IMG/VR virus record: IMGVR_UViG_3300044980_000048
Coordinates: 2,709-66,708 of that record
Strand: one strand, 5' to 3'
Length of the DNA: 64,000 bases
DNA from: a virus
In this document: in pieces, positions 27,940 to 49,444 of the stretch
Layout: every line of letters starts with the position of its first letter
How positions within the stretch are numbered: the first letter of the stretch is position 1
The notes under the pieces: model-generated
Told to the model about the DNA's origin: nothing
Databases searched by the model: none
Seen by the model: the letters and a program-made list of their open reading frames with translations, nothing else
Position numbers and translations under genes: made by a program

Positions 27940-27965
27940 CCTCCTGCGGAGCGCCCGCGTTGAGG
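27940..27965 (-). promoter_or_regulatory. GCGCU-pentaloop hairpin sequestering an RBS
   Basis: CCTC-AAC-GCGG[GCGCT]CCGC-AG-GAGG on the - strand. Confidence 0.6.
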
Positions 27966-27966
27966 G

Positions 27967-28200
27967 TTAAGACAAGACGTGAACTACGCTTGAAAAATCT
28001 TTATAAACTAATGCGTTCTGTGTGGTGCTGTAATAAATACTGTTAGTCGGTGCCGCTGCATCCGATTCACTGAAGGGCTGATAGGCCCCCGCTGGCAACA
28101 CAGTATTAAGCGTTTTAATCAACTGCCCGATCTGCTGCGTAATATCCTGCACCGCATTAATCAGACCTGAGAAGTTCAATCCCGGCGTAACAGGGGGCAT
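27967..28200 (-). CDS. Small tail protein
   Basis: TAATG-coupled to the nozzle gene. Confidence 0.6.
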   Translation of the reverse strand: MPPVTPGLNFSGLINAVQDITQQIGQLIKTLNTVLPAGAYQPFSESDAAAPTNSIYYSTTQNALVYKDFSSVVHVLS

Positions 28201-30329
28201 TACACTCTCCCCGCAGGAGCAGAACGGATACGAAACGCCCCTATGCGCCAGAAGGTATCAATCGTGTCGCTTTCGATTTTAATCGCCATCTGCCTAGCCC
28301 TTGTCCTTATGGTTATGTACTGCGTTGTCGGTGTAATCGTATATGGCCCGAATGTTCCTATCTGCTGACTATTTATGTCACCGGGATAGTAAGCCGTATA
28401 GATAGTTATCGTCACTCTTGGCTGTGTCGTCGGCTGTATAGTTTTCCAGACAAAATCAGGAATCAGCCAATCAACAAACAGAAACATCAAGCCTTCGGAT
28501 ACATCGAAATATCCTGTCTGTGCCATAACGCCGGTCATAGGATATATACCGGCATCGTAACCTATTTCGTGCTGGAAAATCGGATTAGCAACAGGATGTG
28601 CGTCTATAATAGAATCAAGTTCCTGTCCTGTCGCTATCGGATTTCCAAGCACGCTTTGATCAATCCATGCATAACGTACCAGATTTCCGTAATCAAATTC
28701 TCCCTCAAGGACGTTATATTTCCAATAGGAATCAATTTCGCCCGGTGTGGGATTATCAGAGTCAGTTGAAGGGAAAAAACCAGCTACTTCGTTAAACAGT
28801 GAATTTGCTCCGACAAAAATCTTATCCAGATTATTATTGTCCAGCCTGTCAAATATCCAGTCCCAGATTGGGCACGGAATTGGCGTCATGCCAGCACCCG
28901 TACTAAACTGGAAGATATTTTTCTTAGACATCCAATAGACGGTGTTATTATAAAACGTCGAACCTTTTGGCGAAATAAGCCCGCAATTTTCTCCTACCGT
29001 GTTAAATCCATATACAAAGGGATAGCCTTGATAGACCACTTGCCACAAATCCAAGTCCGTCCATACATATATGAACAACGGCCCCGCCAAGCCCCCCACA
29101 ATCATAGAACCGCGCGAAAGCCTGTAGCTACCCGCCTGATTGGTGGCAGAAGCCGTCCAATCCGTTATCACTCCTACATCGCACCAGCGAATCAGCATAG
29201 GATCTTGCGTGCCGCCAGTTTCCGCCCCCAAGATCATCACCTGTTCCTGCGGAATGGCAACAAACATACCGTTACCATATAACGGCGCGTTAGATACCGC
29301 CTGTGCGACATTTCCCGGCGCAATAGGGGGAACCCACTGATAAAGCGTGCCGCCAGTCGGGAGCACAACAAGATTCTGGCCGAAATTATCCAGAAACCAG
29401 TTACGCAAAGGCGATATATAAGAACCGCCAGCGCCTTCTCCATAAGCGCCTACACCGTAAGCCCCTGTGCCATATCCGAGTGTTGTAATATCTGAGACGT
29501 TTCCGGTAGAAAGCAAGTATTGTATCTGCACTTGTCCACCATTTTCACTGGCGGTGGCACCCGAAGTGGCTGCTGAAGTTGCGGTAATAGTGAAGTCAGT
29601 ATTGTCTATAGTTGTGGCAATTAAATATTGGCCGGAAAGCGTCAATCCACCTACCGTCGTCGGAGAGTAAATTGTATAGATGCTTCCTACGCTCCATCCA
29701 AATCCAACATATCCGCCAAGGGTGACTTTTACCGAATTGCTTGATAAAGTCGTCGTAAACAGGCTTGTAACGCCAATATCTGTATTATTGGCTCCGGAAA
29801 ATGTGCCCGGAGAGATTGTGTAGTTATTAGCATCCGTGACGCCGTTTACTCGGTAGAAGCCTTGTAACAGAACAAAATTTCCGCCTCTCCCTATATTAGC
29901 GTAAGTATAAAACGGAATGTAAATCCAGTCACCGACAACAGCGCCGTGGTTAATATCCGTGACCGTAAGATTGTCGGTAACGTCGTTGCTTGTAAAAGGC
30001 GTTGTAAGATTTGAAGTCTTACGAATAGGCGTAATGTCAGTGAGCGTGCCGGTGGAGGGCGTGTAAAGCTCAAGTCTCTGTTCGCTTCCCAGAGCCAAAT
30101 AGGCTATGCTGCTTAAATCCTCAAAGGCATGCAAACCGCGTACAGTTCCTATGGTCTGAAGAACATTAGCACCTTCATTTTCACCGCCGATCCAATCCCA
30201 GCCGCCCAGTTTTTCAAGCAGACCTTCACGAAAGCGGACTAGATTGCTGGCGGATAGCCCTGAAGTATTGGCAGTTGGCGATAATTGGGTGTTAACTCCG
30301 GGCCGCAGAGACAATTTTTGTATGGCCAC
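28200..30329 (-). CDS. Tail nozzle/stabilisation protein (P22 gp10-like)
   Basis: RPGVN...NLVRFREG..EKLGGW, DPMLIRWCD, RARQMAIKIES. Confidence 0.8.
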   Translation of the reverse strand: MAIQKLSLRPGVNTQLSPTANTSGLSASNLVRFREGLLEKLGGWDWIGGENEGANVLQTIGTVRGLHAFEDLSSIAYLALGSEQRLELYTPSTGTLTDITPIRKTSNLTTPFTSNDVTDNLTVTDINHGAVVGDWIYIPFYTYANIGRGGNFVLLQGFYRVNGVTDANNYTISPGTFSGANNTDIGVTSLFTTTLSSNSVKVTLGGYVGFGWSVGSIYTIYSPTTVGGLTLSGQYLIATTIDNTDFTITATSAATSGATASENGGQVQIQYLLSTGNVSDITTLGYGTGAYGVGAYGEGAGGSYISPLRNWFLDNFGQNLVVLPTGGTLYQWVPPIAPGNVAQAVSNAPLYGNGMFVAIPQEQVMILGAETGGTQDPMLIRWCDVGVITDWTASATNQAGSYRLSRGSMIVGGLAGPLFIYVWTDLDLWQVVYQGYPFVYGFNTVGENCGLISPKGSTFYNNTVYWMSKKNIFQFSTGAGMTPIPCPIWDWIFDRLDNNNLDKIFVGANSLFNEVAGFFPSTDSDNPTPGEIDSYWKYNVLEGEFDYGNLVRYAWIDQSVLGNPIATGQELDSIIDAHPVANPIFQHEIGYDAGIYPMTGVMAQTGYFDVSEGLMFLFVDWLIPDFVWKTIQPTTQPRVTITIYTAYYPGDINSQQIGTFGPYTITPTTQYITIRTRARQMAIKIESDTIDTFWRIGAFRIRSAPAGRV

Positions 30330-30332
30330 ACG

Positions 30333-31055
30333 TTAAACCCTCTGTTGCTCAGTTTGCGGATAATATGTAAACGGCTCGTCGGACGCAGATTGTGCCTTTT
30401 TGCGCAGTTCTTCAACATTGGCTGAAGCAAATAACGTCTTGTATTGTGTTTCCCATGACTGCGCCAATTGAGGATCATCGGACTGCTGGCCAAAATCTCG
30501 CTGATAACCAGCGGCAAATACCATACTCGCAGCAAGGAATAAATCTGGCAAATACGTGGTAAGAAACGTCGTGGGATTCCCGGCTGATAAAGGTGTGGGC
30601 CGATATGTGCCAATCTGTTCAATCGCATATGTCGAATCCGGCGCGGGTGCAATCAGCATGGTGCCATTATTTCTTAGCGCATAATATTCCGCTATACTTG
30701 GCGTTAACCCTGAAGTAGTAGAACCAATACTCCATGTGTAATTTAGAAATTCCTCGCTCACCCTGCGCATTGGATTGCGTGTACCTGCATCAGGAAGTGT
30801 GTTCGCAGGAGTAATAAAATTGGCTGAATTAAGGACGATTACGCCAGTCTGCACTGCAACCGATCTCACGCCAGCAACCGTTGTGGAAGTCGTTGATGTG
30901 ATCGTGGATATTAAATCAAGCTCGCGGTAGATTCGTTGCTCGGCATAGTCAATGATGTTGGGTAACATCTGATTTAACAATGCCTGACCATTAGGATCGC
31001 TGACTACCAGCAAGCTCTGAAGAGAACTTACATAGGTAGCGTAATTGTAAGACAT
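30333..31055 (-). CDS. Head-tail adaptor protein
   Basis: IDYAEQRIYREL, IAPAPD, PDLFLAA. Confidence 0.75.
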   Translation of the reverse strand: MSYNYATYVSSLQSLLVVSDPNGQALLNQMLPNIIDYAEQRIYRELDLISTITSTTSTTVAGVRSVAVQTGVIVLNSANFITPANTLPDAGTRNPMRRVSEEFLNYTWSIGSTTSGLTPSIAEYYALRNNGTMLIAPAPDSTYAIEQIGTYRPTPLSAGNPTTFLTTYLPDLFLAASMVFAAGYQRDFGQQSDDPQLAQSWETQYKTLFASANVEELRKKAQSASDEPFTYYPQTEQQRV

Positions 31056-31435
31056 TATTCACCTACATAAACAAAGAGCCCGTCTTCAGAAACATAGTAA
31101 GATTGGCCGTCTTCTGTATAGTATGCATCATCAATTAATTGCGAGGGTGACGCTACAGAAGTTGTTCCTTCCTGCAACTGATACCAGCCGGGGCGCGGGT
31201 CTTGGATAGGTATGGGATCAGGCGGTAGTATTAGAGGACGGAGAAATTCGGCGGGAATGTCTAAATCTTCCTCTGGAACTAATAATCGTAGATTGACAAG
31301 CTGATTCCCACACCATTGGTATTGCCAATGTAAATCTTTATGAAGATATTTAAAATTACTTCTATCCGAAATTCCCGGAGGTTCTGGGTTTTCAGGATCG
31401 GTAAAAGCTCTGCCTTGAAGGCCAGCAATGCTCAT
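31055..31435 (-). CDS. Conserved virion protein
   Basis: GISDRSNF...DPIPIQDPRP. Confidence 0.65.
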   Translation of the reverse strand: MSIAGLQGRAFTDPENPEPPGISDRSNFKYLHKDLHWQYQWCGNQLVNLRLLVPEEDLDIPAEFLRPLILPPDPIPIQDPRPGWYQLQEGTTSVASPSQLIDDAYYTEDGQSYYVSEDGLFVYVGE

Positions 31436-31444
31436 AAAACTCTC

Positions 31445-32641
31445 CTATTGAAAATATCCACCCAAGTCCGGCGTAACGTACATTGTAACCCTTTCCCGAT
31501 CTTCCGCTGCTGCTTCTGCCCAAGCCGCCTGATAATCAGCCTTCAACTGTTCACTCAATGCGGGTGCCCATTTGCGCGACAGATGCCAAGAAAACTCTGC
31601 GCAGAACGCCTCAAGGAAGCGGTATGGAATATCAGGAGTCTGCCCCATTGTCGCATCAGCATCCTGCATCTGAGTGACGCTGTAATACTGCACTTCATAC
31701 GGCCCATTGCTGTCAGGAACCTGCCATAGTGTAAAATTCTGATTCAGCGTTCTATCGTACCAATACTGCGTAGGAAAACCCTGCTGCTGCTTATTAGGCT
31801 GCGAGGCATAGTCAGTGCGCGAGAGAACGCCTAGAATGCGATCAATCAATTGCGCCCCTGTATTCTGCCCCGCAATCTGCAATTGACCGCTGTTTTCACT
31901 TACTGTTGCTCCTGTGCTTGCGGCATAGGAAGCGGTGAAGGTAAATGTGTTTGCAGTCGGCACTGTGACAATCGTGTAGCTGCCAAATAGCGTTATGCCC
32001 CCTATCGCGGTCGAAACCTGTACAACGAAAGTCTGGCCAGCAACAAAACCATGATTATTAAGCGTAACGGTTACTGTCGGGGAATTGGGAGTTGTGGTGA
32101 ATGAAGGAACCGCACCGCCAGTGACGCCCGATGTAGCATTCGCGCCTGCGTTTATAGTGAAGTCGTTTACATCAGGAACGGAAACGACTTGGTAGAATCC
32201 ATAAATTATTAAACCACCTACACTAACGTAGGTAACCATGTTAATCCAGTCGCCTACCGATAAGCCATGATTAGGATAGTTTATATTTACTGAAGAAGAA
32301 TTAAGCGTAGTCGTAAGCGTAGGCGTAAGATTTACCGGACTATTCATACTATACTGCCGCACGTAGGCATCTAGCATCATCACGGTATTTTGAGGCACGC
32401 TATAGGTCGCAACGCCTTGCACTAACGGTACAGACTGAAGAACTACTTTCCAGAGATTAACGCCACGCGAAGTCCATGAGGATAGCACAAGATTCATGCT
32501 CATGCGAGCCGAATACATATGCTCTGGCGTTAGAGAAGCACTGCGAATACCGCATCTTTCATAACATTCAATCAGAAGATCGGCGTTACTTGCAGCAAAA
32601 TTATAGGTGCCACTACTGCCATTTTGGATAGTAGCGGCCAT
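31445..32641 (-). CDS. Tail tubular/adaptor protein with two inserted beta repeats
   Basis: ECYERCG...SARMSMNL...RGVNLW, GFPTQYWYDR, DIPYRF. Confidence 0.75.
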   Translation of the reverse strand: MAATIQNGSSGTYNFAASNADLLIECYERCGIRSASLTPEHMYSARMSMNLVLSSWTSRGVNLWKVVLQSVPLVQGVATYSVPQNTVMMLDAYVRQYSMNSPVNLTPTLTTTLNSSSVNINYPNHGLSVGDWINMVTYVSVGGLIIYGFYQVVSVPDVNDFTINAGANATSGVTGGAVPSFTTTPNSPTVTVTLNNHGFVAGQTFVVQVSTAIGGITLFGSYTIVTVPTANTFTFTASYAASTGATVSENSGQLQIAGQNTGAQLIDRILGVLSRTDYASQPNKQQQGFPTQYWYDRTLNQNFTLWQVPDSNGPYEVQYYSVTQMQDADATMGQTPDIPYRFLEAFCAEFSWHLSRKWAPALSEQLKADYQAAWAEAAAEDRERVTMYVTPDLGGYFQ

Positions 32642-32652
32642 GATATTTTACC

Positions 32653-32871
32653 TTAAGTATTTTGTTTTATTTCCGGGTATTTGCTGTGAACTTTAGCGCG
32701 CACTTTAGCTTTCAATTCCGGGCTTCCAAACTGGCTGATGCGGGCAAGTGCGTTCCTAGCGTGGCTTTTATCCTCAATTGGATATGACCTGTCAGGGCCA
32801 GCAAATTCTTCGCTAGGAAGTGCATTGCGAGTCTTAGCCGTTAGTTTTCCGCCTTCTTTGAAACCGCTGTC
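32653..32871 (-). CDS. DUF6582-like basic domain, probably expressed by +1 frameshift from 32870..33226
   Basis: LTAKTRNALPSEEFAGPDRSYPIEDKSHARNALARISQ; no start of its own near the domain. Confidence 0.6.
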   Translation of the reverse strand, partial: DSGFKEGGKLTAKTRNALPSEEFAGPDRSYPIEDKSHARNALARISQFGSPELKAKVRAKVHSKYPEIKQNT

Positions 32872-33226
32872 AGGGGCCTTCTCCGGCCTTCGGGTCTTGC
32901 GACTTCTTATCCATCTTCGTACCACCGACGCGATCATGGCCTTCGCCATCACCGGAGTTGGAATACGGCGTGCGATGGGCTGCGGCGGTAAATGGCGAGC
33001 CGCCAGCGGCATGTTTGCCTATCTTGCCGCCACGCTTGGCCTTGTCAAGACGATGATGGGATTTCGCGCCATCGGCATGACCGCCCTTCTTCATCTTGCC
33101 GCCCTTTTTGAAGCCAGCTTCTTCGTTCTTCGCTTCCTTTACTTCAGGCGAGCCAACAGCATTATACTCATTGACCTTTCCGCCCTTCGCCTTCTTGTGC
33201 ATTTCAAGCTTGTGTTTTGCACTCAT
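32870..33226 (-). CDS. Small basic K-x-G-G-repeat virion protein
   Basis: AAGGAG RBS; five x-[AK]-x-GG motifs. Confidence 0.7.
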   Translation of the reverse strand: MSAKHKLEMHKKAKGGKVNEYNAVGSPEVKEAKNEEAGFKKGGKMKKGGHADGAKSHHRLDKAKRGGKIGKHAAGGSPFTAAAHRTPYSNSGDGEGHDRVGGTKMDKKSQDPKAGEGP

Positions 33227-33250
33227 ATCAGTCTCTCCTTAAAAATGTTT

Positions 33251-33904
33251 CTAGCCACGGCCTGCAATAAACGCCTGTCGGAAATTGGCCGTGACTGAGC
33301 CAGTTCCGCTATTAACGGTGACTCGCGCCATCGTTATGGGTTGATTCGTAAAATCGTTATTATTCGTCGTGATCGCATCAAATCCGTTCATGGGATACCA
33401 TGTCGGTGGATTGAGCGTGATATTCCACTGCGGCGAATAGTCATTGTAGGAATTTTCAATCGTGTAGGTCACAGGCAATGAGCCAACCGTCGTTCCCACC
33501 CCTATGCTTGCCGGGTTCACCCACTGATCAACCACCCACGGCGGCGATGAGCCTACGCCAGTCGTTCCGGCCTGTACGGTGCTAGACGTTGTAGAACTAG
33601 GGGTAATAGCCGTGACAGTGGAAAAATCCCGCACTGTCTGCGCAACAGAAGTACCAGCACCAGTAAGCGTCTCGGTCTGAGGATTACCCCAATAATCCGT
33701 TCCCGCTATCTTAAACGTAATAGCAGAATCATTGCCAGCAGAAGTAACTCCAACACGGCGAGGAACGTCAAATACGGCAATTCCACCTGATACAAGTCCG
33801 CCATTTAATGTCAGTGCTGTATTAGGTGTTCCGTTCTGTGCCTGTGCTATTCCCGAAGTGCTTGATGCGACCAGTACAAGGGATATTTGTTTTGTGAAGG
33901 CCAT
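33251..33904 (-). CDS. Virion structural protein
   Basis: PRRVGVTSAGND...GTDYWGNPQTETLTG...DFSTVT. Confidence 0.7.
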   Translation of the reverse strand: MAFTKQISLVLVASSTSGIAQAQNGTPNTALTLNGGLVSGGIAVFDVPRRVGVTSAGNDSAITFKIAGTDYWGNPQTETLTGAGTSVAQTVRDFSTVTAITPSSTTSSTVQAGTTGVGSSPPWVVDQWVNPASIGVGTTVGSLPVTYTIENSYNDYSPQWNITLNPPTWYPMNGFDAITTNNNDFTNQPITMARVTVNSGTGSVTANFRQAFIAGRG

Positions 33905-33917
33905 TCATATCCCTACA

Positions 33918-34853: not shown

Positions 34854-34868
34854 TTTGTGGCTCCAAAA

Positions 34869-35777
34869 TTAACTTGAAGGGGTTGAGCCGAAGAGCGACT
34901 TGCTATCATTGTAGCCCCCGCTGTAGCGTTCATAACCAATGACTAACAGGTTTCCCGTAATCGGATCAACCTGCATATCAGTCTCGTAAGGAATACGCTG
35001 CATGTAATTGAGCCCTTCCTTATCGGTACGGATGAACCAAATGTAACTGGACGTAAGGAAGTCCATCACCTGATAGCCTTCAGGCAGAAGACCCATGGAC
35101 GGAATAACGCCGATGTCGTTGTTATTAGTGCCGGGGCGCAGTTCGGTCTTGCAAAGACGCTCTGCAATGTAGCGAAGCTGGATAGGAACCACGAGTTTGC
35201 GCGCGCGGGCGAAGATTTTGGTATTCGCCTGATCGACAAACTGACGGATGATGGTGCAGCCGGATTCGATTGAGGATTCGTTTAAGTCCAACTGCGTAGA
35301 GAACGTATTGGCAAACGTGCCGCCGTCAACCGGATGCAAAGCACTCAGAAGCGGAACACCGTCACCTACAATGGCTGAATTATACGTGGTGGCGGTATTG
35401 AGGACGTTCGCCATGATGATTTCCTTGGTCTGGCGGAACGAACGTGCCAAGCCGAGGTTCATCGGATTGAACTTCTCTTTATACAGGTTATCGTCAATGG
35501 CTTTGCGGGTAATCGCGTAGCCAAGGCCGATTTCCAGATGCGACTGGTTATAAAGGAAGCGCTGACCGGCTGCGTTATCGAACTTTGTGGGGCCACCTTC
35601 ATTTTTGATTGCGGCCAGACCGAGATAACGCATTTCCTCCGAACGCTCAAGAGCCATCTTGGATACGCCCATATCGAAAACATGGGTGTACTGCGTCGGG
35701 ATTTCATCGTATTGTCCCGTGATAGCGAAGAGGCCGGGGAAGAGTAACTGTTGGATTGCTGAGATTGCTATAGCCAT
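34869..35777 (-). CDS. Major capsid protein (HK97 fold, Mu gpT-like)
   Basis: LFPGL, KNEGG, GYAITRKAIDDNLY, LARSFRQTKE, GDGVPL, ERYSGG. Confidence 0.9.
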   Translation of the reverse strand: MAIAISAIQQLLFPGLFAITGQYDEIPTQYTHVFDMGVSKMALERSEEMRYLGLAAIKNEGGPTKFDNAAGQRFLYNQSHLEIGLGYAITRKAIDDNLYKEKFNPMNLGLARSFRQTKEIIMANVLNTATTYNSAIVGDGVPLLSALHPVDGGTFANTFSTQLDLNESSIESGCTIIRQFVDQANTKIFARARKLVVPIQLRYIAERLCKTELRPGTNNNDIGVIPSMGLLPEGYQVMDFLTSSYIWFIRTDKEGLNYMQRIPYETDMQVDPITGNLLVIGYERYSGGYNDSKSLFGSTPSS

Positions 35778-35781
35778 GTGA

Positions 35782-36390
35782 TTACACTCCCGTCAGTGAA
35801 TTAATGTCAGCGGAGTTTAGAATCACGTTGACGATTGGGTTTGCCGATGTCGGGTCATTCGCAGCGCCGTTGAAGTAGCCCTGACTGAATGCCTGAATGC
35901 GGAATGGGAGTGTGTTCGTGGTCTGGATAGTAGCGCCGTCGATATAGGCCGTACTGATGCCTGAAGTCGTGGTTGGCGTCCCTGCCCCACCGAATGCCGC
36001 ATTAAGACCGATTGAGGTCTGCGTAATGGCGGTTGTTAGGTTGCCAATCTGCACTTCAAACTGCGCATCCCGATCACCGATGAACTTTCCCTGACAGGTA
36101 TTGATAAGCGCGGTAGTGGGCGCATTCCAATACTTGTTTTCGACATACCCAAGGTTGCTATCCGTGTAATAGCACCCGATGAAAATCCCAAGAACCTGAG
36201 TGTTCGTGGTGCCTAGGGTCATATAACCCTGATTAGCGCCCGTTGCTGAAACCGTCTTTACCGGATCACCAAAGGCAATCTTGTTGCTGTCGGTGTAGTA
36301 AATCTGCTTGTAAGAGATTGCGTAATTAGGCTGTGCGCCATCGTCGCGGCCTATATAACGGAAGCCAAACGGCGCAAGAGTATTGCTCAT
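35782..36390 (-). CDS. Capsid-associated (decoration/cement) protein
   Basis: NTLAPFGFR...IAFGDPV...GIFIGCYY; directly upstream of the capsid gene. Confidence 0.75.
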   Translation of the reverse strand: MSNTLAPFGFRYIGRDDGAQPNYAISYKQIYYTDSNKIAFGDPVKTVSATGANQGYMTLGTTNTQVLGIFIGCYYTDSNLGYVENKYWNAPTTALINTCQGKFIGDRDAQFEVQIGNLTTAITQTSIGLNAAFGGAGTPTTTSGISTAYIDGATIQTTNTLPFRIQAFSQGYFNGAANDPTSANPIVNVILNSADINSLTGV

Positions 36391-36417
36391 GGCAAAATTC
36401 CTCTGCTGAGAAACTTT

Positions 36418-36436
36418 TTACCAGAGCGCCCGGTAA
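36418..36436 (-). promoter_or_regulatory. GCGCU-pentaloop hairpin
   Basis: TTACCGG[GCGCT]CTGGTAA on the - strand. Confidence 0.6.
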
Positions 36437-36467
36437 TACATTTCGGGGGTTAAACCTTTGTGGCCTT

Positions 36468-36492
36468 CAAGAATCTGAGCGCCAGACTCTTG
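36468..36492 (-). promoter_or_regulatory. GCGCU-pentaloop hairpin
   Basis: CAAGAGTCTG[GCGCT]CAGATTCTTG on the - strand. Confidence 0.65.
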
Positions 36493-36498
36493 TAAACT

Positions 36499-37044
36499 TT
36501 AGGCAGGAATAATGGACGGGTCTGCGGGGCCGTATTCCTGCGTTATCTTGGCGATCTTGTCCAGCTTGCCGCCTTTGCGCGGGAACAACGTATCGCCTTC
36601 TTCCTGTATCTTTTCCAACTGTGCGCCGATTAAGGCGGCGTTGGCTCTTTCTTCTCTTTTACGTGTCTGCTGTCCATAATACACGTGTCTTTCCATTAAT
36701 GCAAGCCCATTAATGAGAATGATCTTATCTGCCGGATCGTCGGTGGCGCATTCAGGATGCCTGTCACGCGGTACGAATGTCCATCCGAGGCGTTTCATAT
36801 CGGCCTGATGTTTGCGCGCTTCAAGGCCAACATAGGTCATGAGTTTTCCGTGATATTCAAATTCGGGCGGACGCAGGGCTTCGTCATAACCGAAGTAGTC
36901 AGTCACCTGTCCTACCTCGTTGATAGCGTCCACCACTCGCGGATCAGGACGGAATTCAGCGCGTAAATCAGGGCGCGGCGCTTCCTCACGTATAGCGGGA
37001 CGCTCACCACTTAAGCCAAGTTTAGTTTTCTGTGTGTTTTCCAT
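36499..37044 (-). CDS. Conserved head-module protein
   Basis: GWTFVPRDRHPE...INGLALME. Confidence 0.7.
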   Translation of the reverse strand: MENTQKTKLGLSGERPAIREEAPRPDLRAEFRPDPRVVDAINEVGQVTDYFGYDEALRPPEFEYHGKLMTYVGLEARKHQADMKRLGWTFVPRDRHPECATDDPADKIILINGLALMERHVYYGQQTRKREERANAALIGAQLEKIQEEGDTLFPRKGGKLDKIAKITQEYGPADPSIIPA

Positions 37045-37049
37045 TGGGA

Positions 37050-38003
37050 TTATCCTTCATACACGGGTTTGCCAGCGGCTTTCGCTGCGAGTTTGCCTTC
37101 ATAGTATTTCTTCTGGGCTTCGGCTGCTGTGAGTTTCGGGAACATGGCAACGGCATGTTCCGCCTCAATTGCGGACAAGCGATTATCGCTCTGAGTGCGT
37201 GTGCTAGACATGGTGTTATTTCCTCTGGATGGCGGGGCAGCTACCCGGCTGGATGATACTTTCGTAGGCTGCGGTTCAATGTCAATGTGCTTGCCGTTCG
37301 TCTCTTGTGTATCTCTAGCGGGCGGCGGTTTATCATCAATATTTTCGTTGATGTAATTGAAATATTCATCGCTCTCTTCCGTGATGCCTTCTGCCACAGC
37401 CAACTGGTGAAGATAGTTAGCTTTCGCCTGAAACTTGTTATCCGTCAGGTACTGCGGGTGATGGCGAATCCATTCGCGCACACGGGGTTTGAAACGTTCA
37501 AGCGATGCCTCAAGTGGATCGGCTGTTGCAGTGGGCTTTGGCTTCGCGGCTTCAGTGGCTTTGAACTGCTCAAATTGCTGCTTGCGGCCTTCCCATGCGT
37601 CAATCTTGGTCTGGGCCGAGGCAAGCTGGCGGGCAATCCGTGCGGCATCAGCGAATTTGCCACCTTCCTGCGCAGCGATATATTCCTTTTCCAAGGATTC
37701 TGCCTGCGAGGTAGCCGCCGCTATAGCGTTAGTTATGGCAGTTTCTTCAGCGGCAAAGCGGTTGCTGGTTTCCGTCTGCACCTGCCGGTTAGCCTCATTG
37801 CGCTGTGTTTCGGCGGAATTGGCGCGAATCAGGGCTTCTGCCTTTTCCTTCTTTGTTTTTTCAAGTTCTTTGCGAAGATTCTCAAGTTCCGAGTCATTTA
37901 CGGAAGGCTCGTCTTCTTTCGGTTTATCCACGGCACGCACACCTTTGAATACTACGTCATCATCGTCTTTGTCATCTTTCTGAGCGCCAGAAGATTCAGC
38001 CAT
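37050..38003 (-). CDS. Scaffolding protein
   Basis: Acidic N-terminus, coiled coil, SDEYFNYI, VAAPPSR; between portal and capsid genes. Confidence 0.75.
   Translation of the reverse strand: MAESSGAQKDDKDDDDVVFKGVRAVDKPKEDEPSVNDSELENLRKELEKTKKEKAEALIRANSAETQRNEANRQVQTETSNRFAAEETAITNAIAAATSQAESLEKEYIAAQEGGKFADAARIARQLASAQTKIDAWEGRKQQFEQFKATEAAKPKPTATADPLEASLERFKPRVREWIRHHPQYLTDNKFQAKANYLHQLAVAEGITEESDEYFNYINENIDDKPPPARDTQETNGKHIDIEPQPTKVSSSRVAAPPSRGNNTMSSTRTQSDNRLSAIEAEHAVAMFPKLTAAEAQKKYYEGKLAAKAAGKPVYEG
37974..37995 (-). promoter_or_regulatory. GCGCU-pentaloop hairpin in the first codons of the scaffold gene
   Basis: ATC-TTCTG[GCGCT]CAGAA-A-GAT on the - strand. Confidence 0.55.
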
Positions 38004-38007
38004 AAAA

Positions 38008-38241: not shown

Positions 38242-38242
38242 T

Positions 38243-38674: not shown

Positions 38675-38675
38675 G

Positions 38676-38807: not shown

Positions 38808-38808
38808 A

Positions 38809-41805: not shown

Positions 41806-41891
41806 TTATGATGATTCTAATATAGTGTGGGGAGGCGCATGAGCGCAGAAAGGACGAATTTATATTACGTTAGCATTAAATCCGCTTTTTA

Positions 41892-42386
41892 TCAAGCGGG
41901 TAATTTTACATTCCATCCCGCAATTAAGCACCATTCAAGTAAACCCACTCGCAAAAGTCCAATGATATTGTTATACCGTTCGCTTCGTTCTCCATGCTCT
42001 ATGGCAAGCTCTGCAAAAGTCTTATCGTTGTCACATATAGCCTTACAAACTGAAAATGCTACAGTATGATCTTTAGCCATTAATTCTTGCCATACCCTGA
42101 ATCTTTTTAGAACATCCAACACAAAATCATTGTATTCGCTTGCGCTGATTCCGGGCAATTCCCCATACTTAAATTGACGATAATTAACCAAACCGCCATA
42201 TGACACGCGAATCCCTATAGCTATTTGAATCATTGCATCAATTTCCTGATCGGTAAGCCTCTCCATAAGCCTGTGGACTGACTTGCGCATGAAGAACGCA
42301 CGATATGTCCGTGCCTGAGAAAGTTTCCGTAAGGCAGGGACTACACTATCAACGGGTGAAAACTTCTTTTTGGGGAGTTTTTTCAT
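41892..42386 (-). CDS. Putative late transcription regulator (C-terminal HTH, DUF6456/Q-like)
   Basis: ICDNDKTFAELAIEHG...LLRVGL; between terL and portal. Confidence 0.45.
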   Translation of the reverse strand: MKKLPKKKFSPVDSVVPALRKLSQARTYRAFFMRKSVHRLMERLTDQEIDAMIQIAIGIRVSYGGLVNYRQFKYGELPGISASEYNDFVLDVLKRFRVWQELMAKDHTVAFSVCKAICDNDKTFAELAIEHGERSERYNNIIGLLRVGLLEWCLIAGWNVKLPA

Positions 42387-44011: not shown

Positions 44012-44969
44012 CTTCTTTAATCGTATTCGGCTTTATGTAGAATGTCTTTTCGCCCACATGGCCTAGCTGCGTAGACATATCAAAATCCATCCATATCTTG
44101 AAGCCGGATTTGCGTACAAGCTTACAGAAGGTAATATCCTCTCCAAACGCATCACCATCTGCGTAGTTAGGGGGCTCATAGAAAGCTGGCATACCAATTG
44201 TCTGAAATACAGTAAGCTTGATAAGCTGGCAGCAGGAGCCGATTAAAGCCATTTCCACTAATCCTTGGCCTGCGCTTATTATCTTATGTGTTCCCGTTGA
44301 ATCAGGAGGCGCAACGGCAACACCTATGGGAGTGCCGGTTTCATCGCCGCGTTTGCAGGCCGTTGCTGAGATTATATCAAGATTGTAGGAAAGAAACCTG
44401 TGCAGCAGAAACGAGGGAAACACCATATCGTTATCGAGGAAAAGTATGTGTGTAGCGCCATTCTTCATGGCGTCCTGCACCAAGCGATTACGGTTACTCG
44501 TAATGCGACTGCCCATACAATCGCGGATAATAAACTGGATATTATCTTGCTGTTTTATCGTCAGAAGCATGGCAATAAGGCTTTGCATGAATTCCGCCTT
44601 CATGGAACCGTAATGTGGCAATCCGATATAAACTACGCGCTTGGGCGGCCTTACATCCGGTATCTGCGCATCGGGTATAATTTCCTTGACGCGGGCAAAC
44701 ATCTTCTCAGCTTCATCGTATTGCCCGGTAATACGGTAAATGTTACCCCAATTATACATCGCTCTGTCATGGCGCGGGTCTAGCTCTATCGCTTTCTTAA
44801 AGCACATACCCGCATAGTCCTGATCGCCCTTGGCCATCTTGAGACAGCCCATATAATGCCAACCGTTAGCAAGTTCTGGATTTTCCTCAAGTATAGAAGC
44901 CAGAAGCGAAAAAGCTTCATCGGATTTATTCTCGCGCAGGAGGGATTCTATGAAGGAGAAATCGGTCAC
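43977..44969 (-). CDS. TPR-repeat plus GT-A glycosyltransferase
   Basis: N-terminal TPRs; HILFLDNDM, GEDITFC, LGHVG. Confidence 0.75.
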   Translation of the reverse strand: MTDFSFIESLLRENKSDEAFSLLASILEENPELANGWHYMGCLKMAKGDQDYAGMCFKKAIELDPRHDRAMYNWGNIYRITGQYDEAEKMFARVKEIIPDAQIPDVRPPKRVVYIGLPHYGSMKAEFMQSLIAMLLTIKQQDNIQFIIRDCMGSRITSNRNRLVQDAMKNGATHILFLDNDMVFPSFLLHRFLSYNLDIISATACKRGDETGTPIGVAVAPPDSTGTHKIISAGQGLVEMALIGSCCQLIKLTVFQTIGMPAFYEPPNYADGDAFGEDITFCKLVRKSGFKIWMDFDMSTQLGHVGEKTFYIKPNTIKEDGKATDSTTAS

Positions 44970-45628
44970 AGTTTTAACCTCTCTCTAACACGTTTCAAAT
45001 CTTCTTGGTACTTCGGCCCGTTGATATATGCCTTATATGCCGCACCGTCATCCGTATGCGAAGGCTGCGTTGCGTAGGTAGTATCAAATTCGGCTTTCCC
45101 TACCTGCCAGTGGCGATGCTCAAGCAATACGTCGCTGCAATATCGTGCCAAACCTAATTCAAGAGCGAATGTGCGCCATATCAAGTCAGCGCTGCCCCGT
45201 TTTATGTATGGCGGGCATAGCCATCCCCATGCGCGTACCAGATCGCCGCCAATAAAGGGATGCGTTGCAGCAAACCTGTCCTGATGAATTCCATCATCGC
45301 CCCATGCCACGCAATAGGGAATACAGGCGTCACGCAACCGAACATCCCATTTTTCCGTCATAGGAGCTACATCATCGGCAATCAGCGCATACCACGGCTC
45401 ATTTGGGTTTTCTTCAACCACGCCATTCATTGCCGCCGCTAAATCACGGCATTTTTTATTAATCTTAAAATTCCAAGTAGCAGGAAAATTCCTTATGATT
45501 CTTTCGTAAACAACAAAATTATCCTCGTCGATCACTACGGTAACGGGCAGAGTTGCAGCAGTGACTTCATACGCCTTAATAAAGCGATTCAGGCTATCAG
45601 GACGGCCACGGGTAGGAAGGATAATCAC
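44966..45628 (-). CDS. GT2-like glycosyltransferase
   Basis: ILPTRGRP, ALIADD, LEHRH. Confidence 0.75.
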   Translation of the reverse strand: MIILPTRGRPDSLNRFIKAYEVTAATLPVTVVIDEDNFVVYERIIRNFPATWNFKINKKCRDLAAAMNGVVEENPNEPWYALIADDVAPMTEKWDVRLRDACIPYCVAWGDDGIHQDRFAATHPFIGGDLVRAWGWLCPPYIKRGSADLIWRTFALELGLARYCSDVLLEHRHWQVGKAEFDTTYATQPSHTDDGAAYKAYINGPKYQEDLKRVRERLKL

Positions 45629-46452
45629 AACAGCCCTCTTTCCTGTAAAATATGCTTCTGCGTCACTTTGGAGAATATCTCAAAACCTGCTTCTGCAACA
45701 TTCTGTACACCATCCTGCAACTTCAAGACAGTGTGGCAGGTTTCAACAATATTATCATAATTGCAAAACAGCGCTGCGTTATAGTAAGGCTTCTCAAGTT
45801 CCTTGTCTGCACCATACTCGGAAACCACGCATACCTTATTCGCAAACAGGTGGGAGCAGCGGATAATCTCAAAAATAGCAGCCTGATAGTAGTGAAGGTT
45901 TAGCACCAATTTGCTCTGCGCAATATACTTATCCCGTTCTGCGCCGTACTTTCCAAATAGCGTAAAAATATTAAGTCCGGTTTTCTTCAGGTCATTGAGG
46001 ATTCTTTCACGGCGAATATTGAGCGACCCATAGAAAAGAACGTCTATTTTCTTTTCCTGATCTAACTCTATATTGCCCATGGACGGACAATATCCAATCG
46101 GCACGTACTTGGCCTCAATGCCAAATCCTTTGAGTCTTTGCACGTTTAAATGCGAGTAATCCCATACTTCATGCTCGCGGAGCATCTGAAGGTAATGATT
46201 CGTCATCCAAGCGTTGCCGGTGAGCGTATCAATTTGCTCGGTCTGATAGATAACGGCATCGGCAGGTAGTTTTATAATCTCTCCATCAGTCAAATGTGCG
46301 CCGAAGACAAGCGGCGCACTGTAATGTGTCTTCGGATCAATCGCCATGGGAACGTTAAGTGCGTAATAAAAACCTGTAGCAACTTCCCTGAAAGCCTCGC
46401 TATGGATATATCCTTCAGGCTTAACAAGCCATACAGATTTCACCGTGCTCAT
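45625..46452 (-). CDS. GT-B type glycosyltransferase
   Basis: IDVLFYGSLNIRR, SKLVLNLH, FEIIR, VVSE. Confidence 0.7.
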   Translation of the reverse strand: MSTVKSVWLVKPEGYIHSEAFREVATGFYYALNVPMAIDPKTHYSAPLVFGAHLTDGEIIKLPADAVIYQTEQIDTLTGNAWMTNHYLQMLREHEVWDYSHLNVQRLKGFGIEAKYVPIGYCPSMGNIELDQEKKIDVLFYGSLNIRRERILNDLKKTGLNIFTLFGKYGAERDKYIAQSKLVLNLHYYQAAIFEIIRCSHLFANKVCVVSEYGADKELEKPYYNAALFCNYDNIVETCHTVLKLQDGVQNVAEAGFEIFSKVTQKHILQERGLL

Positions 46453-47432
46453 TGATACGCCTCATCATTGAAGGCGATATACCTATTCTTCGCGGCATCA
46501 CGGTTAGCGCCATACCAAGCAATCGTGTCGCGTATGCCGTCTTCAAGGCCCACCCGCGCATGAAATCCATAGCCCGCAGCCTTGGTCATATCCATCACGC
46601 GCTGATTATCGCCTCCCGGCATCGTCTGATCCCATACTATCTCACGCGGCCCACCGGGAGCATGTTTGGCTACAAGCTCTGCTACATCGGCAATCGTCAC
46701 GGGATTGCCGCTGCCTAAGTTTATAGGTTCATGAATACCTTTCTCAACGGCAAGCATCGTCCCCGCTGCAACGTCTTCTGCATGGATGAAATCACGGTAT
46801 GCCGCACCGCTTCCCCAGACCGTCAAAGGCCCATCGTTCTCCACTACGCGGGCAATTAGAGAGGGCAATACCATAGCCGTTTCCGAGTCAAAGTTATCCC
46901 ATGGCCCATACACATTGGCTGGCCTCACAATAGATGTCCTGAAGCCAAACTCTTCTGCATAGGCAGCCGCCTGCAATTCTCCCATCCGCTTCGCCCATCC
47001 CGCATACCAGTCATTAGGCGACGGAAAGCCATCCCACATATCGCCCTCATGAAAGACTTCCGCAGGCGGATAGACCCCTACGGTGCTGGTATAAAGATAA
47101 TGCTTCACCTTGGCGCGTCTGGCCGCCTCCATCATGTTGATGGAAGTCTGTAATATCGGAGTGAAAAACCTCGCCGGATATTTCTTTGTGGCAGAAGGCG
47201 AACCCTTAACGCCTACAAGGTTAAATACAATATCCTTGCCTTGGCATGCGCTCTCGCAATTCGAGAATTCCCTTAAGTCGCACCTGTGGTTGCCATCCAT
47301 GGAGGCATTGTAAACAATAGCATCACGCCTGCGCAGCATTTCTACCAGCGGACGGCCTATAAGGCCGGTGCCGCCTGCTACCAATACTTTCTTGCCCTCA
47401 TAGAAGTTTTTCACGCGAAATTTTCCCGTCAT
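46449..47432 (-). CDS. NDP-sugar epimerase/reductase (GDP-fucose synthase-like SDR)
   Basis: GGTGLIG, YAGWAK, RPANVYGP, RDFIH. Confidence 0.85.
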   Translation of the reverse strand: MTGKFRVKNFYEGKKVLVAGGTGLIGRPLVEMLRRRDAIVYNASMDGNHRCDLREFSNCESACQGKDIVFNLVGVKGSPSATKKYPARFFTPILQTSINMMEAARRAKVKHYLYTSTVGVYPPAEVFHEGDMWDGFPSPNDWYAGWAKRMGELQAAAYAEEFGFRTSIVRPANVYGPWDNFDSETAMVLPSLIARVVENDGPLTVWGSGAAYRDFIHAEDVAAGTMLAVEKGIHEPINLGSGNPVTIADVAELVAKHAPGGPREIVWDQTMPGGDNQRVMDMTKAAGYGFHARVGLEDGIRDTIAWYGANRDAAKNRYIAFNDEAYQ

Positions 47433-48364
47433 TTATTTTCCTGAAACCACTTCCACGTTTTATGGATGCCCTGTTCCAGCATCGTTATCGGATGCCAGCC
47501 AATCTGTTCCTGCGCATAGGAACAGTCCAGCGACACACTCATGTCAATCGTTGGCTTACTTGTATCGTAGGTTATATTGATTTTCTTTCCCGATGCCTCA
47601 ATTATCTTGGCCACAAGTTCATTGATCGGCGTTGCCGTTCCACTGCCGCAGTTGAATAATTCATAGGAATTTTTCTGCCGTTCTATGGCGCACTGGACGA
47701 ATGAAACCAAGTCGTCAATGTAAAGTAAATCCCGCGCCTCGGTGCCGTTGCCCCATACAATAATATCCTTATCGGCCTGCGCAACCTTCGTCATCGTAGC
47801 GCCAAACACATGCGTGCGCTCAAGATCAAATTTATCGTAAGGCCCGTAAAAGTTACTTCCGCGTATCACGGTAAACTTTGTTTCGCCAAGGCCAGCGTAA
47901 AAGGCGCACATTTTTTCATTGTACAGCTTGGTATTCACCATCCCAAAATAGCGCGGATGCGGGAAGACTTCCGCCATCTCGTTTACATGGCCACCGCTGT
48001 ACATCGTCGAGCAACTGAAATAAACGACCTGCTTAACCTTATGCTCGAATGCCGAACGGAATATATAGGCATTCATCACCGCGTTATCCGTCACGTGAAT
48101 CCAAGGCTTGCCAAACGTGTCCTGACAGCCCGACGTTACCGCCGCAGCCTGAATGACAATATCCTTGTCCTGCATAACGGCATCGACATTCTCAGGATCG
48201 CACAAATCCGCATGCAACCATTTTACGTTAATATGCCTCCATGGAAGCTTTTCATGAACCACACACGTAACATCATAGCCGGGATGTTCAGCGAGTCGCT
48301 TTGCAATATTGCGTCCAAGGAAACCCGTTGCGCCTAATACCAAAACCTTCTGTTTCATAGCCAA
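47429..48364 (-). CDS. NDP-sugar epimerase/reductase (SDR)
   Basis: GATGFLG, NFYGPYDKFD, RDLLY. Confidence 0.85.
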   Translation of the reverse strand: MAMKQKVLVLGATGFLGRNIAKRLAEHPGYDVTCVVHEKLPWRHINVKWLHADLCDPENVDAVMQDKDIVIQAAAVTSGCQDTFGKPWIHVTDNAVMNAYIFRSAFEHKVKQVVYFSCSTMYSGGHVNEMAEVFPHPRYFGMVNTKLYNEKMCAFYAGLGETKFTVIRGSNFYGPYDKFDLERTHVFGATMTKVAQADKDIIVWGNGTEARDLLYIDDLVSFVQCAIERQKNSYELFNCGSGTATPINELVAKIIEASGKKINITYDTSKPTIDMSVSLDCSYAQEQIGWHPITMLEQGIHKTWKWFQENK

Positions 48365-49182
48365 CCTATTTCCTTTGCTGCATCCTGAAAATAACCGGGA
48401 AAGAATTTCTTTGGGTCAATGCGCTCTGTGACGGTGCCGCGATTAAATAGATCAGCGCCGGTCTTCAGGCATTCAGCGATGTGATCGGGAGATTTGAATT
48501 CATCGCTGTTTAACTCCTGATGCGAAAAATTCTCCACCTTGTTCCTGATTGCCTTCTCGCCGCCCATATAACTAAGATGCCAGCCGCCATCCGGCACAAA
48601 ACCGCACATATTACGCCTATTACGCATCTCCTGCGCCCCTGTCAGCAAGGCCATCCGCACGGTAGTCAGTATCGTTCCGTGCCAATGCTCATGCCGCAGG
48701 TTCGTCAAGTCGTAATAGAAAAACGCCTGCCTGCATGCCACGATAGCATCCGCCGTAATCCATTCCGTTGCCCACTCTATCGCCTTGCGCGAAGGGAATT
48801 CGTCCACATCCCCCATCATGAACGTATCTTCCTGCTTGATGCCAAGTTCCAATATATCCTTGCGCGGTGCAGTCAGAATATCGGTAAGGGAATTGCGTTG
48901 AGTCTTCTCCACGTGCCACCAGACGGAATTAGGATCAAACTGCTTGGGCTTCTCGGAAAAGTCCAGATGCGATACATCTATCCGGACTGGATGATGGATA
49001 ATCTTATGCTTCCACGGCGCAAAGCGTTCGCGGTTGTCCCAATAATGAAACGGCTTATCCTTGCCGCTAAAAGTCTTATCAGCTTCGCAAATGATAAACT
49101 TATCGACATAGGGGGAAAGAAGACGAAGACGAAACTCTAGTATGTCCAATTCCGAGTCAAACAACACCGCATCCAAAAGCAT
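48355..49182 (-). CDS. GT17-like glycosyltransferase
   Basis: ELDILEFRL, EADKTFSG, QRN, GDVDEFP, GGWHLSY, NFSHQE. Confidence 0.8.
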   Translation of the reverse strand: MLLDAVLFDSELDILEFRLRLLSPYVDKFIICEADKTFSGKDKPFHYWDNRERFAPWKHKIIHHPVRIDVSHLDFSEKPKQFDPNSVWWHVEKTQRNSLTDILTAPRKDILELGIKQEDTFMMGDVDEFPSRKAIEWATEWITADAIVACRQAFFYYDLTNLRHEHWHGTILTTVRMALLTGAQEMRNRRNMCGFVPDGGWHLSYMGGEKAIRNKVENFSHQELNSDEFKSPDHIAECLKTGADLFNRGTVTERIDPKKFFPGYFQDAAKEIGWL

Positions 49183-49427
49183 TACAACGTCCTTACGATA
49201 AGATAGTTTTGATAACTAAGAGGCCAGACACGATATTGGCTATCCACCATCGTCGGGACTCCATGGCAATTCTTCAACAAATCATCCGCCAGCAGCTTAT
49301 CAATTATAAAATCATCAACATGCGTCAGCGGATGCGCGGTGCAATTCGGGCCAATTGCATATACTCGCGGAAATAAAAACGCGGGGGAAAAATCTTTTAC
49401 TTTAGGGGGATTTTCTTCTGAAGACAT
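49182..49427 (-). CDS. Hypothetical protein
   Basis: 81 aa; start codon lies inside a GCGCU hairpin. Confidence 0.45.
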   Translation of the reverse strand: MSSEENPPKVKDFSPAFLFPRVYAIGPNCTAHPLTHVDDFIIDKLLADDLLKNCHGVPTMVDSQYRVWPLSYQNYLIVRTL

Positions 49428-49444
49428 CGGAGCGCCCGGTGTTT
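49422..49444 (-). promoter_or_regulatory. GCGCU-pentaloop hairpin overlapping a start codon
   Basis: ACA-C-CGG[GCGCT]CCG-A-TGT on the - strand. Confidence 0.55.

Follow-up and report, generated by a model that had tools for sequence, protein, structure and literature searches.

Gene order and anatomy of the capsid leader

The stretch of DNA analyzed here (the window) is 64,000 nucleotides (nt) long and corresponds to bases 2709-66708 of the 66,708-base IMG/VR virus record IMGVR_UViG_3300044980_000048. From ~52 kb down to 12 kb, the - strand, which is the late strand, forms a tight gene block that includes sugar-nucleotide and glycosyltransferase genes as well as the genes for the terminase large subunit, the portal, and the major capsid protein; many proteins of this block had no family matches in Pfam/PHROG-type profile scans. 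Here, we describe a conserved RNA leader within this block, in which two hairpins with identical GCGCU loops at 36.4 kb precede a decoration-like gene and the major capsid gene.

Directly upstream of the leader lies a 181-amino-acid (aa) gene (36499..37044, - strand) that is kept across the family, and directly after it lies a 202-aa gene (35782..36390, - strand), the product of which begins with MSNTLAPFGF. The 202-aa protein had no Pfam match and no PHROG match; its AlphaFold model (predicted local distance difference test score, pLDDT, 78.8) matches the decoration or cement proteins of HFTV1, FCWL1, T1, Sf11, TW1, and SHP as well as lambda gpD, with Z scores from 8.6 down to 4.4. The list of matches is coherent and the scores are middling, and we therefore regard the product as a probable capsid decoration/cement protein and refer to it as decoration-like. 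The major capsid protein gene (34869..35777, - strand) starts 5 nt past the 202-aa gene and matches phrog_371 (E 9.6e-6); the protein has 50-62% identity to 17 viral contigs and is annotated as a capsid protein in the nearest records. This gene order is kept in the family and consists of a putative scaffold gene (317 aa in the window, - strand), a gene for a ~180-aa protein, a gap, a gene of ~200 aa with the N-terminus MxNTxAPFGF, and the capsid gene.

The distal hairpin of the leader, HP1 (36468..36492, - strand), begins 6 nt past the stop codon of the 181-aa gene and has a 10-bp stem with one G-U pair (-13.0 kcal/mol, z -4.2), and its loop starts 92 nt ahead of the AUG of the 202-aa gene. 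The proximal hairpin, HP2 (36418..36436, - strand), has a 7-bp stem, also with one G-U pair (-7.3 kcal/mol, z -2.2), and its loop starts 39 nt ahead of the same AUG. The spacer between them holds a C-rich single-stranded box, UUAACCCCC (36445..36453, - strand). A third hairpin, HP3 (36391..36422, - strand), is predicted to sequester the Shine-Dalgarno (SD) sequence by pairing UUUCUC (36408-36413) with GAGGAA (36398-36403), and its predicted lower helix, GGUAAAA:UUUUGCC, extends the SD hairpin to the AUG. Because the 3' arm of HP2 is the 5' strand of this lower helix, HP2 and the fully closed form are mutually exclusive. In a thermodynamic prediction for positions -50..+12, the minimum free energy (MFE) of the closed form was -20.2 kcal/mol compared to -16.0 kcal/mol with HP2 enforced, which makes the latter 4.2 kcal/mol dearer; the relative L003 has the same overlap of HP2 and the closed form in a different sequence. 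Neither a terminator nor a promoter lies just upstream of the leader in the window, where HP1 directly follows the upstream stop codon.

GCGCU hairpins in the window

An earlier note on this DNA, made from the letters alone, had proposed five - strand stem-loops with a G-C-closed GCGCT loop at the starts of late genes as a regulon of RNA operators. All five are present: GGCGCTC occurs on the - strand at 49430, 37982, 36477, 36424, and 27949 with complementary flanks at each site, and the note was also correct in placing G-U pairs on this strand in the 36.4-kb copies, an A-C mismatch and an AUG (in the 3' strand) at 49.4 kb, and a ribosome-binding site in the lower stem at 27.95 kb. Three of these hairpins lie outside the leader. 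Copy C (37974..37995, - strand) has a 5-bp core stem (37978-37992) and falls at +9..+23 of the 317-aa putative scaffold gene, that is, in its first codons (-5.7 kcal/mol, z -0.8). Copy F (27938..27972, - strand; -12.1 kcal/mol, z -1.3) combines a UUAACCC box with a 4-bp hairpin (27946-27958), and its lower helix CCUC:GAGG, across an internal loop, covers the SD of a 153-aa gene (27474-27935). Copy B (49422..49444, - strand) has 3 + 3 bp around a C-A mismatch (core 49428-49438; -4.8 kcal/mol, z -0.6), and its 3' strand contains the AUG of an 81-aa gene (49182-49427), at which no SD is visible. All three have the loop GCGCU, as does a sixth copy, A (51847..51859, - strand; AAGC[GCGCU]GCUU, with C-G closure; -3.6 kcal/mol, z -0.2), located at +14 of the GDP-mannose 4,6-dehydratase gene, which is the first gene of the - strand block. 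Only HP1 and HP2 fold better than their own shuffles, the z scores of the other four copies being -0.2 to -1.3.

In a listing of the whole window, GCGCT with at least three flanking pairs occurs eight times on the - strand and five times on the + strand. At this stem length, the G-C-closed hairpins are all on the - strand and are the five sites named before, compared to none of the five on the + strand, and the other seven - strand GGCGCTC heptamers all lack a stem of at least 3 bp, as had been claimed. Comparison with shuffled sequence, a check that the earlier note had itself called for, gave a mixed outcome. Late-strand GCGCT hairpins were more frequent than expected from 300 dinucleotide shuffles for stems of at least 4 bp (6 versus 2.0; P 0.017) and of at least 7 bp (2 versus 0.10; P 0.003), whereas the GGCGCTC heptamer itself was not enriched, with 15 found (12 on the - strand) versus 10.7 expected and 11/100 shuffles reaching 15. 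GCGCT is also not the top pentaloop in the window for stems of at least 4 bp (6, compared to 9 for GGATA). Taken alone, the evidence from the window is modest.

The earlier statement that the stems differ but still pair holds only in part within the window. The stems fall into two classes with long strings in common: a 13-nt string, TCTGGCGCTCAGA (also written UCUGGCGCUCAGA), is common to the 36.48-kb (HP1) and 37.98-kb copies, an 11-nt string, CGGGCGCTCCG, is common to the 49.43- and 27.95-kb copies, and the 36.42- and 49.43-kb copies have 10 nt in common. Because of these long shared strings, the copies look like paralogues rather than five independent covariation events. The six hairpins do not have the layout of an intrinsic terminator, in which a U tract follows a GC-rich hairpin, and none of them was found in a terminator scan; HP1 is followed by AAGGCC and the homologous hairpin of the relative L008 by UUCCUUUU.

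The leader is conserved and covaries in relatives

Using an alignment of the 202-aa protein, we identified at least 472 tblastn-confirmed relatives in IMG/VR, of which 80 loci were returned; together with 17 capsid-matched viral contigs, 97 loci were read in all (designated L). Leader hairpins lie at fixed distances from the start codon, with the proximal loop starting at -46..-38 (n = 41) and the distal loop at a median of -83 (n = 53), and the window, at -39 and -92, has the same arrangement, with one hairpin ~40 nt and another ~80 nt ahead of the MxNTxAPFGF gene in the same synteny. Among 76 distinct leaders, 32 have at least two hairpins of one loop type, 24 have one hairpin, and 2 are mixed solely via 3-bp matches; counted by protein rows, 68/85 carry a hairpin of one of the types I, I', II, and III no more than 130 nt from the start.

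The loop differs among lineages. CCCGGYGY is carried by the majority, with CCCGTTG as a variant, GCGCY is carried by the window and 17 other protein rows, and RGGCC by one clade. Both hairpins of one genome carry the same loop type, which suggests one reader per lineage. In a quick, midpoint-rooted tree of the 202-aa protein, the GCGCY type is found on deep, long branches and the CCCGGYGY type fills large derived clades; owing to the long branches, these placements are uncertain. A C-rich unpaired box (CCCCCG or CCCGGUU) is present in the spacer of relatives with both of these loop types.

The stems covary around these loops. For 27 GCGCY hairpins of relatives, with the window excluded, 84.3% of the cells pair, compared to 44.4% in shuffled controls (0/500 reach the observed value) and 34-48% in slid controls; the five outer pairs, which were not used in selection, pair in 18-24 of the 27 hairpins, and GCGC is invariant in 27/27. 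In 28 CCCGGYGY leaders, pairing reaches 91% for HP1, where 6/6 pairs show double changes, and 93% for HP2, where 4/5 pairs do. G-U pairs are frequent in the leader stems of relatives, which supports that the structure forms in the sense RNA, and GCGCT hairpins in relatives were found 19 times on the late strand versus 4 times on the other strand. A covariance model built from the relatives only gave 14 matches in the window at E values up to 10; 12 of them fall on the - strand, and the six sites are all among the 14. The conserved positions and covarying stems of the tandem pair support the earlier idea of a strand-specific element with a conserved loop and variable stems that acts in the transcript. 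The observation behind it is real but was over-read, and at least three lineage-specific loop types of what is a family-wide leader were missed.

Not every GCGCT hairpin belongs to this leader. A GCGCT "hairpin," GGCGA[GCGCT]TCGTC, recurs at +215 of the capsid gene (L002, 4387-4399; L008, 10211-10225; L040, ~3815-3829); this is conserved coding sequence and warns against counting intragenic hairpins.

Near-identical phages were not found, a megablast of 35500-39500 against 50,697 phage records being without a match. The nearest isolates, including Pelagibacter phage HTVC023P and Roseobacter phage CRP-902, have 36-40% capsid identity; they share the gene order, but their gaps are short, AT-rich, and without such a leader, so that no cultured model system was found. 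At gathering thresholds, Rfam 15 gave no matches over the whole window and none in the loci of 20 relatives (117,600 bases), nor did permissive E values give any match on 36300-36600; one CCCGGYGY leader gave only chance-level matches of 10-21 bits compared to gathering scores of 44-123. The earlier note had not recognized the motif from any described family, in agreement with the Rfam result. Full-text literature searches found no description of the leader. Fremin et al. 2023 catalogued 8,495 structured RNA candidates predicted from IMG/VR (PMC10690425) and mention five that lie upstream of a major capsid protein domain; like the leader, these candidates derive from IMG/VR and are covarying structures directly upstream of phage genes. 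The text of that paper, as distinct from its tables and alignments, names no motif like the leader, which may already be in the catalogue without a description. Overall, the tandem pair stands as a well-supported RNA leader that is conserved and, apparently, undescribed.

Transcription and translation context

Upstream of the leader, a terminator-like hairpin is present in 44 and a sigma70-like promoter in 17 of 79 distinct intervals, compared to 3 and 1, respectively, in coding controls. In the relatives with a promoter, the -10 element ends at a median of 114 nt ahead of the AUG, so that HP1 starts ~10 nt into the predicted transcript. In the window, sigma70-like promoters occur at chance level (29 versus 28.8 in shuffles; 13 versus 12.9), and terminator-like sites in the late region are no commoner than in shuffles (18 versus 20.3). 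One of these chance-level promoter matches, TTGAAA-17-TAATAT just 5' of the 49.43-kb hairpin, was considered as a promoter and is not relied on. The likeness of TTAACCCTCA at 27.96 kb to a T3 promoter was likewise rejected; no T7-like polymerase domain was found among the proteins scanned, and the downstream part is GC-rich.

The SD of the decoration-like gene is unusually occluded: its mean pairing probability is 0.79 (n = 64), whereas that of the neighboring capsid gene is 0.55 (n = 66; P 5e-9), and the UUUCUC:GAGGAA pairing of HP3 is the form that this takes in the window. This occlusion supports in part the earlier proposal of translational control. We also considered complementarity between the loops and the gene start (GGUGY to ACACC, CGCY to GGCG, and GCGC to the Ala-Pro codons GCGCC). 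Such pairing occurs in some MFE folds, and synonymous changes of the Ala codon are uncompensated in the loops; this complementarity is unproven.

Copies outside the leader

The four copies at 49.43, 37.98, 27.95, and 51.85 kb overlap an SD, an AUG, or first codons, whereas HP1 and HP2 lie upstream of the ribosome-binding site. Within -45..+30 of a gene start, we found 3/4 of the non-leader late-strand hairpins with stems of at least 4 bp (P 0.003) and 4/6 of those with at least 3 bp (P 0.0008); counted by bare heptamers, the tendency is weaker (3/10; P 0.016-0.05). All four late-strand copies of TTAACCC are at gene boundaries (12799-12805, 27426-27432, 27964-27970, and 36447-36453), and the box stands just 5' of two of seven GCGCU hairpins, namely at 27.95 kb and in the leader spacer (P 4.7e-5).

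The TTAACCC at 27426-27432 lies in the 5' arm of a terminator-like hairpin, AACCCCC-AUUCU-GGGGGUU with a U-rich tail (27411-27430). This hairpin comes right behind the 153-aa gene, which, being located between it and the 27.95-kb hairpin, looks like a self-contained unit.

In three relatives (L037, L038, and L041), a TAACCC box and a GCGCU hairpin are followed by the SD of the putative scaffold homologue. The L037 site and the 27.95-kb copy of the window are laid out alike, and the scaffold copy of the window is in another register, at +9..+23 as opposed to just 5' of the SD. A further relative, with a complete 71-kb genome, has ACGG[GCGCU]CCGU directly ahead of the start of the terminase large-subunit gene.

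Interpretation of the leader and its copies

Based on these data, we favor, tentatively and at slightly less than an even chance, that the 36.4-kb pair is a conserved cis-acting RNA leader or operator for the decoration/capsid message, which acts on translation or stability and is read by a trans-acting factor. The constancy of the loops while the stems are free, the occurrence of one loop twice per genome, the conserved single-stranded box, the position at the head of the capsid message, and the occluded SD argue for an RNA operator read by one factor per lineage. The leader would act in the mRNA as a cis-acting operator and would present, in order, the distal hairpin, the C-rich single-stranded box, the proximal hairpin, and the SD-occluding hairpin, followed by the decoration-like and major capsid genes, in a large family of tailed phages that are uncultured. 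A putative trans-acting factor, most likely phage-encoded, would read the two identical loops and probably also the C-rich box, and its binding would set the amount of translation or the lifetime of the decoration/capsid message. In the window, a factor holding HP2 would be expected to open the start site, as the closed form that buries the SD and AUG would then be excluded.

In the lineage of the window, three or four further genes may in addition have acquired a copy of the hairpin at their starts, in one case together with the UUAACCC box. These extra copies, which overlap the ribosome-binding region, would act as repressor sites, and whether they are functional is about evenly balanced. 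The wider reading, in which a two-hairpin operator had its loop word rewritten at least twice (GCGCY, CCCGGYGY, and RGGCC) together with a phage-encoded RNA-binding regulator, and in which the UUAACCC-box/hairpin module was copied to putative scaffold, virion-associated, and sugar-modification genes to form a post-transcriptional regulon for morphogenesis, is in our judgment doubtful. A five-site regulon in the phage of the window is possible. Of the five sites proposed as a regulon, the tandem pair at 36.4 kb is conserved and covarying, and the others are weak hairpins located at genes that relatives lack.

Hairpins of this kind have precedents. The coat-protein operator hairpins of RNA phages (MS2 and PP7), the T4 gp43 and gp32 operators, and RegA sites are phage translational operators, and like the hairpins described here, such operators combine a short hairpin and a sequence-specific loop with a free stem near the ribosome-binding region. 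The leader differs from them in that the pair lies 39 and 92 nt upstream and has two identical loops, a C-rich box, and a loop that switches between lineages; in contrast to the RNA-phage operators, its target is the capsid-decoration/capsid operon of a double-stranded DNA phage, and its reader is putative. In the Com-mom system of phage Mu, a hairpin also lies upstream of a structure that hides the start, and upstream binding would open that start, much as the exclusive folds in the window and in L003 would permit. Unlike in Mu, no Com-like zinc-finger protein was identified here, and the switch is a predicted one.

Several observations weigh against a factor-read operator and against its extension to other genes. 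The switch is a prediction, the equilibrium probability of HP2 in the window is near zero, and the overlap with the closed form was found in only 2/12 GCGCY-type leaders folded, most of the others retaining HP2 in the MFE structure; the switch between HP2 and the closed form would therefore be a feature of this lineage and not a family rule. The helix that would link the start codon to the segment 3' of HP2 is also a weak one, being 69% paired and showing few double changes. The relatives' model scores the six window sites at E values of only 0.99-5.4, and its best match is mid-gene (29274-29298). The four extra copies do not exceed shuffles in stability, and the genes by the 27.95-, 49.43-, and 51.85-kb copies are absent from 15 other genomes with the exception of one weak match. 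In four relatives with GCGCY loops, 3/19 non-leader hairpins are near starts versus ~1.7 expected, and CCCGGYGY-loop hairpins are nearly confined to the leader, with 2-6 late-strand and 0-2 other-strand matches in five genomes; most of the late-strand matches are 4-bp stems inside genes. All three loop types hold a self-complementary GC tetramer (CCGG, GCGC, or GGCC), which fits protein-free kissing between loops. The CCCGTTG variant was found in a genome in which CCGG occurs at 0.33 of the Markov expectation, and part of the concerted loop change may therefore be restriction avoidance at the DNA level and not co-evolution with a reader. Finally, no RNA sequencing runs covering 28100-38090 are listed; two DNA runs cover this region, one of them being probably its source. 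The CCGG-depleted genome is G008 (the record of L106; loci L123-L125), and its leader loops are CCCGTTG or CCAGTTG instead of CCCGGYGY-type CCCGGYG.

The search for a reader likewise counts against the operator. In an all-against-all BLAST of 6,154 open reading frames (ORFs) from 16 genomes, no gene cluster tracks the loop type and includes the window, and the adjacent 181-aa protein has no Pfam match or assignable fold. In Foldseek, the 181-aa protein had no match with an E value under 0.66; KH domains headed the list with a probability of 0.11-0.15, which is meaningless, and an Atlas search gave hypothetical viral clusters only. The readers suggested previously, namely the proteins encoded at 41892..42386 and 32653..32871 and the scaffold, fared no better: no protein co-varies with the loop type, and the 41892-42386 protein has no family match and occupies the position where a small terminase would sit. 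As observations on the 181-aa family, residues 50-150 form a well-modelled core (pLDDT above 90) without a recognizable fold, and most relatives (L010, L075, L061, L053, L040, L059, L088, L071, and others) have an AT-hook-like N-terminus, RGRP(P)R, that the window protein lacks.

Other explanations account for parts of these data. The leader could work without a factor, its hairpins acting by their own folding as a 5' stabilizer, as a processing or 3'-end barrier separating the upstream from the capsid message, or as a folding guide for SD occlusion, possibly with kissing loops. The start of HP1 so close to the predicted transcription start in relatives with a promoter, the high stability of HP1 directly after the upstream stop codon in the window, the CCGG, GCGC, or GGCC in every loop type, and the failure to find a reader are as expected for such a leader. 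Stability and barrier roles need no invariant loop, yet GCGC does not vary among the GCGCY hairpins; the CCCGTTG variant retains both hairpins without a self-complementary tetramer in either loop, loops made of G and C often hold such tetramers by chance, and the C-rich box is conserved and unpaired. We therefore consider a factor-independent leader unlikely. With regard to the extra copies, it is nearly an even call that only the leader pair is functional and that the 49.4-, 37.98-, 27.95-, and 51.85-kb copies are chance occurrences or relics of recombination between intergenic cassettes. Their stability at the level of shuffles, E values of ~1-5 each with the relatives' model, flanking genes missing from other genomes, the weak start proximity of bare heptamers, and the 11-13-nt strings in common with leader hairpins, as copies would have, all fit this explanation. 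It accounts less well for the clustering of 4/6 hairpins near starts, for TTAACCC upstream of two hairpins, and for the presence of the same module, in another register, at the putative scaffold gene of an independent lineage. Relic copies are compatible with an operator function of the leader itself.

The box and hairpin could alternatively load a factor or bind RNA polymerase for processive antitermination of the nut or put kind, with read-through along a late operon of 25-40 kb and reloading at the extra copies. The lambda nut sites (boxA and boxB, with N) and the HK022 put RNA similarly place a single-stranded box followed by a small pentaloop hairpin, or tandem hairpins, just past a promoter; the leader lies just downstream of a promoter and terminator in many relatives, the window copies are spread along one long - strand block, and a terminator-like hairpin follows the 153-aa gene. 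Lambda boxB has a 5-bp stem with a GNRA-like pentaloop (GAAAA/GAAGA type), and boxA resembles CGCUCUUA and lies a few nt 5' of the hairpin. The lambda hairpin is bound by the arginine-rich protein N; in the 181-aa family next to the leader, the N-terminus is RGRP-rich in most relatives and not so in the window. Here, the loops are GCGCU in the six window copies and GCGCY, CCCGGYGY, or RGGCC in relatives, none of them GNRA-like; upstream of the hairpins there is either a UUAACCC(C/U)C box or none, and CGCUCU occurs only inside HP2, so that no boxA consensus precedes the hairpins. The operon is late and not early, several copies overlap a ribosome-binding site or first codons, which fits translation better, SD occlusion is conserved, terminator-like sites in the late region do not exceed shuffles, and CCCGGYGY genomes have a single site. 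The boxB-like signal entertained earlier is thus not borne out in its strict form, and we regard antitermination as improbable. The least likely explanation, because of the G-U pairs, is a DNA-level signal, be it an N4-type promoter in hairpin or cruciform form, a site for the phage C5-cytosine methylase or a host restriction system, or the operator of a dimeric DNA-binding protein. The loop cores are 4-bp GC palindromes, GCGC, CCGG, and GGCC being classic 4-bp targets, the window encodes a C5-methylase domain, and in one relative, the loops have lost CCGG and the genome as a whole is depleted of it; like the promoters of the N4 virion RNA polymerase, the hairpins are small, have conserved loops, and lie ahead of phage genes on one strand only. 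N4 promoters are DNA hairpins with 3-nt loops at early genes, whereas here the loop has 5 nt (read as a triloop, it is CGC with G-Y closure), late genes are concerned, and the G-U pairs of the sense strand would be A-C mismatches on the template strand, which also disfavors the DNA-hairpin late promoter suggested before. Moreover, the arms vary around a conserved center, the opposite of what a dimeric operator would show, none of four tetramers tracks the loop type in 16 genomes apart from the one CCGG-depleted relative, and neither a giant virion RNA polymerase nor a T7-like polymerase was seen among the subset of window proteins scanned. A DNA-level signal is therefore highly improbable.

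To our knowledge, little is known about how tailed phages without an RNA polymerase of their own set the timing and amount of capsid protein, and each of the classical cases (P22 scaffold, T4 operators, and Mu Com) derives from a single model phage. Here, a conserved and strongly covarying RNA structure lies ahead of the most abundant virion genes in environmental phage genomes that number in the hundreds. With a loop that changes by lineage, it offers a well-defined starting point in the search for a new RNA-protein pair or a leader switch of a new kind, and the loop type, C-rich box, and SD hairpin together provide a sequence handle by which the beginning of the capsid operon can be annotated in phage contigs from metagenomes. 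Should the extra copies answer to the same factor, they would form a rare post-transcriptional regulon for morphogenesis; if the leader is already among catalogued candidate phage RNAs, what is new is its anatomy, its loop types, and the link to SD occlusion.

Additional observations

The sugar-nucleotide gene block at 43977-52852 adjoins the terminase genes and is absent from the 15 other genomes searched; it contains a GDP-mannose 4,6-dehydratase, a DegT-type aminotransferase, two epimerases, a GT17-like transferase, a TPR protein, and a divergent GHMP kinase. The C5-cytosine DNA methylase domain at 6862-7554 (+ strand) corresponds to the N-terminal third of the profile, and the ORF 7508-8320, which overlaps the methylase ORF, may continue this domain. 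An 86-nt gap ahead of the portal gene (41806-41891) contains the mini-hairpin GCGC-UCAU-GCGC in CUGCGCUCAUGCGCC, which is one base off CUGGCGCUCAG; the same gap holds a GC hairpin flanked by A and T runs.

In L145 (MW202675.1), a CCCGGYGY-type relative, a tRNA-like sequence with a CAT anticodon, recognized by eye at ~3150-3230, sits between the putative scaffold region and the terminator-promoter-leader segment. In the window, 55167-55199 (- strand) and 55021-55048 hold a long hairpin of GT/GC repeats (GTATACGTGTGCGCGTGTGCGCGTGTGTATAT) and, beside it, the best sigma70-like promoter match of that region (11/12, with TG).

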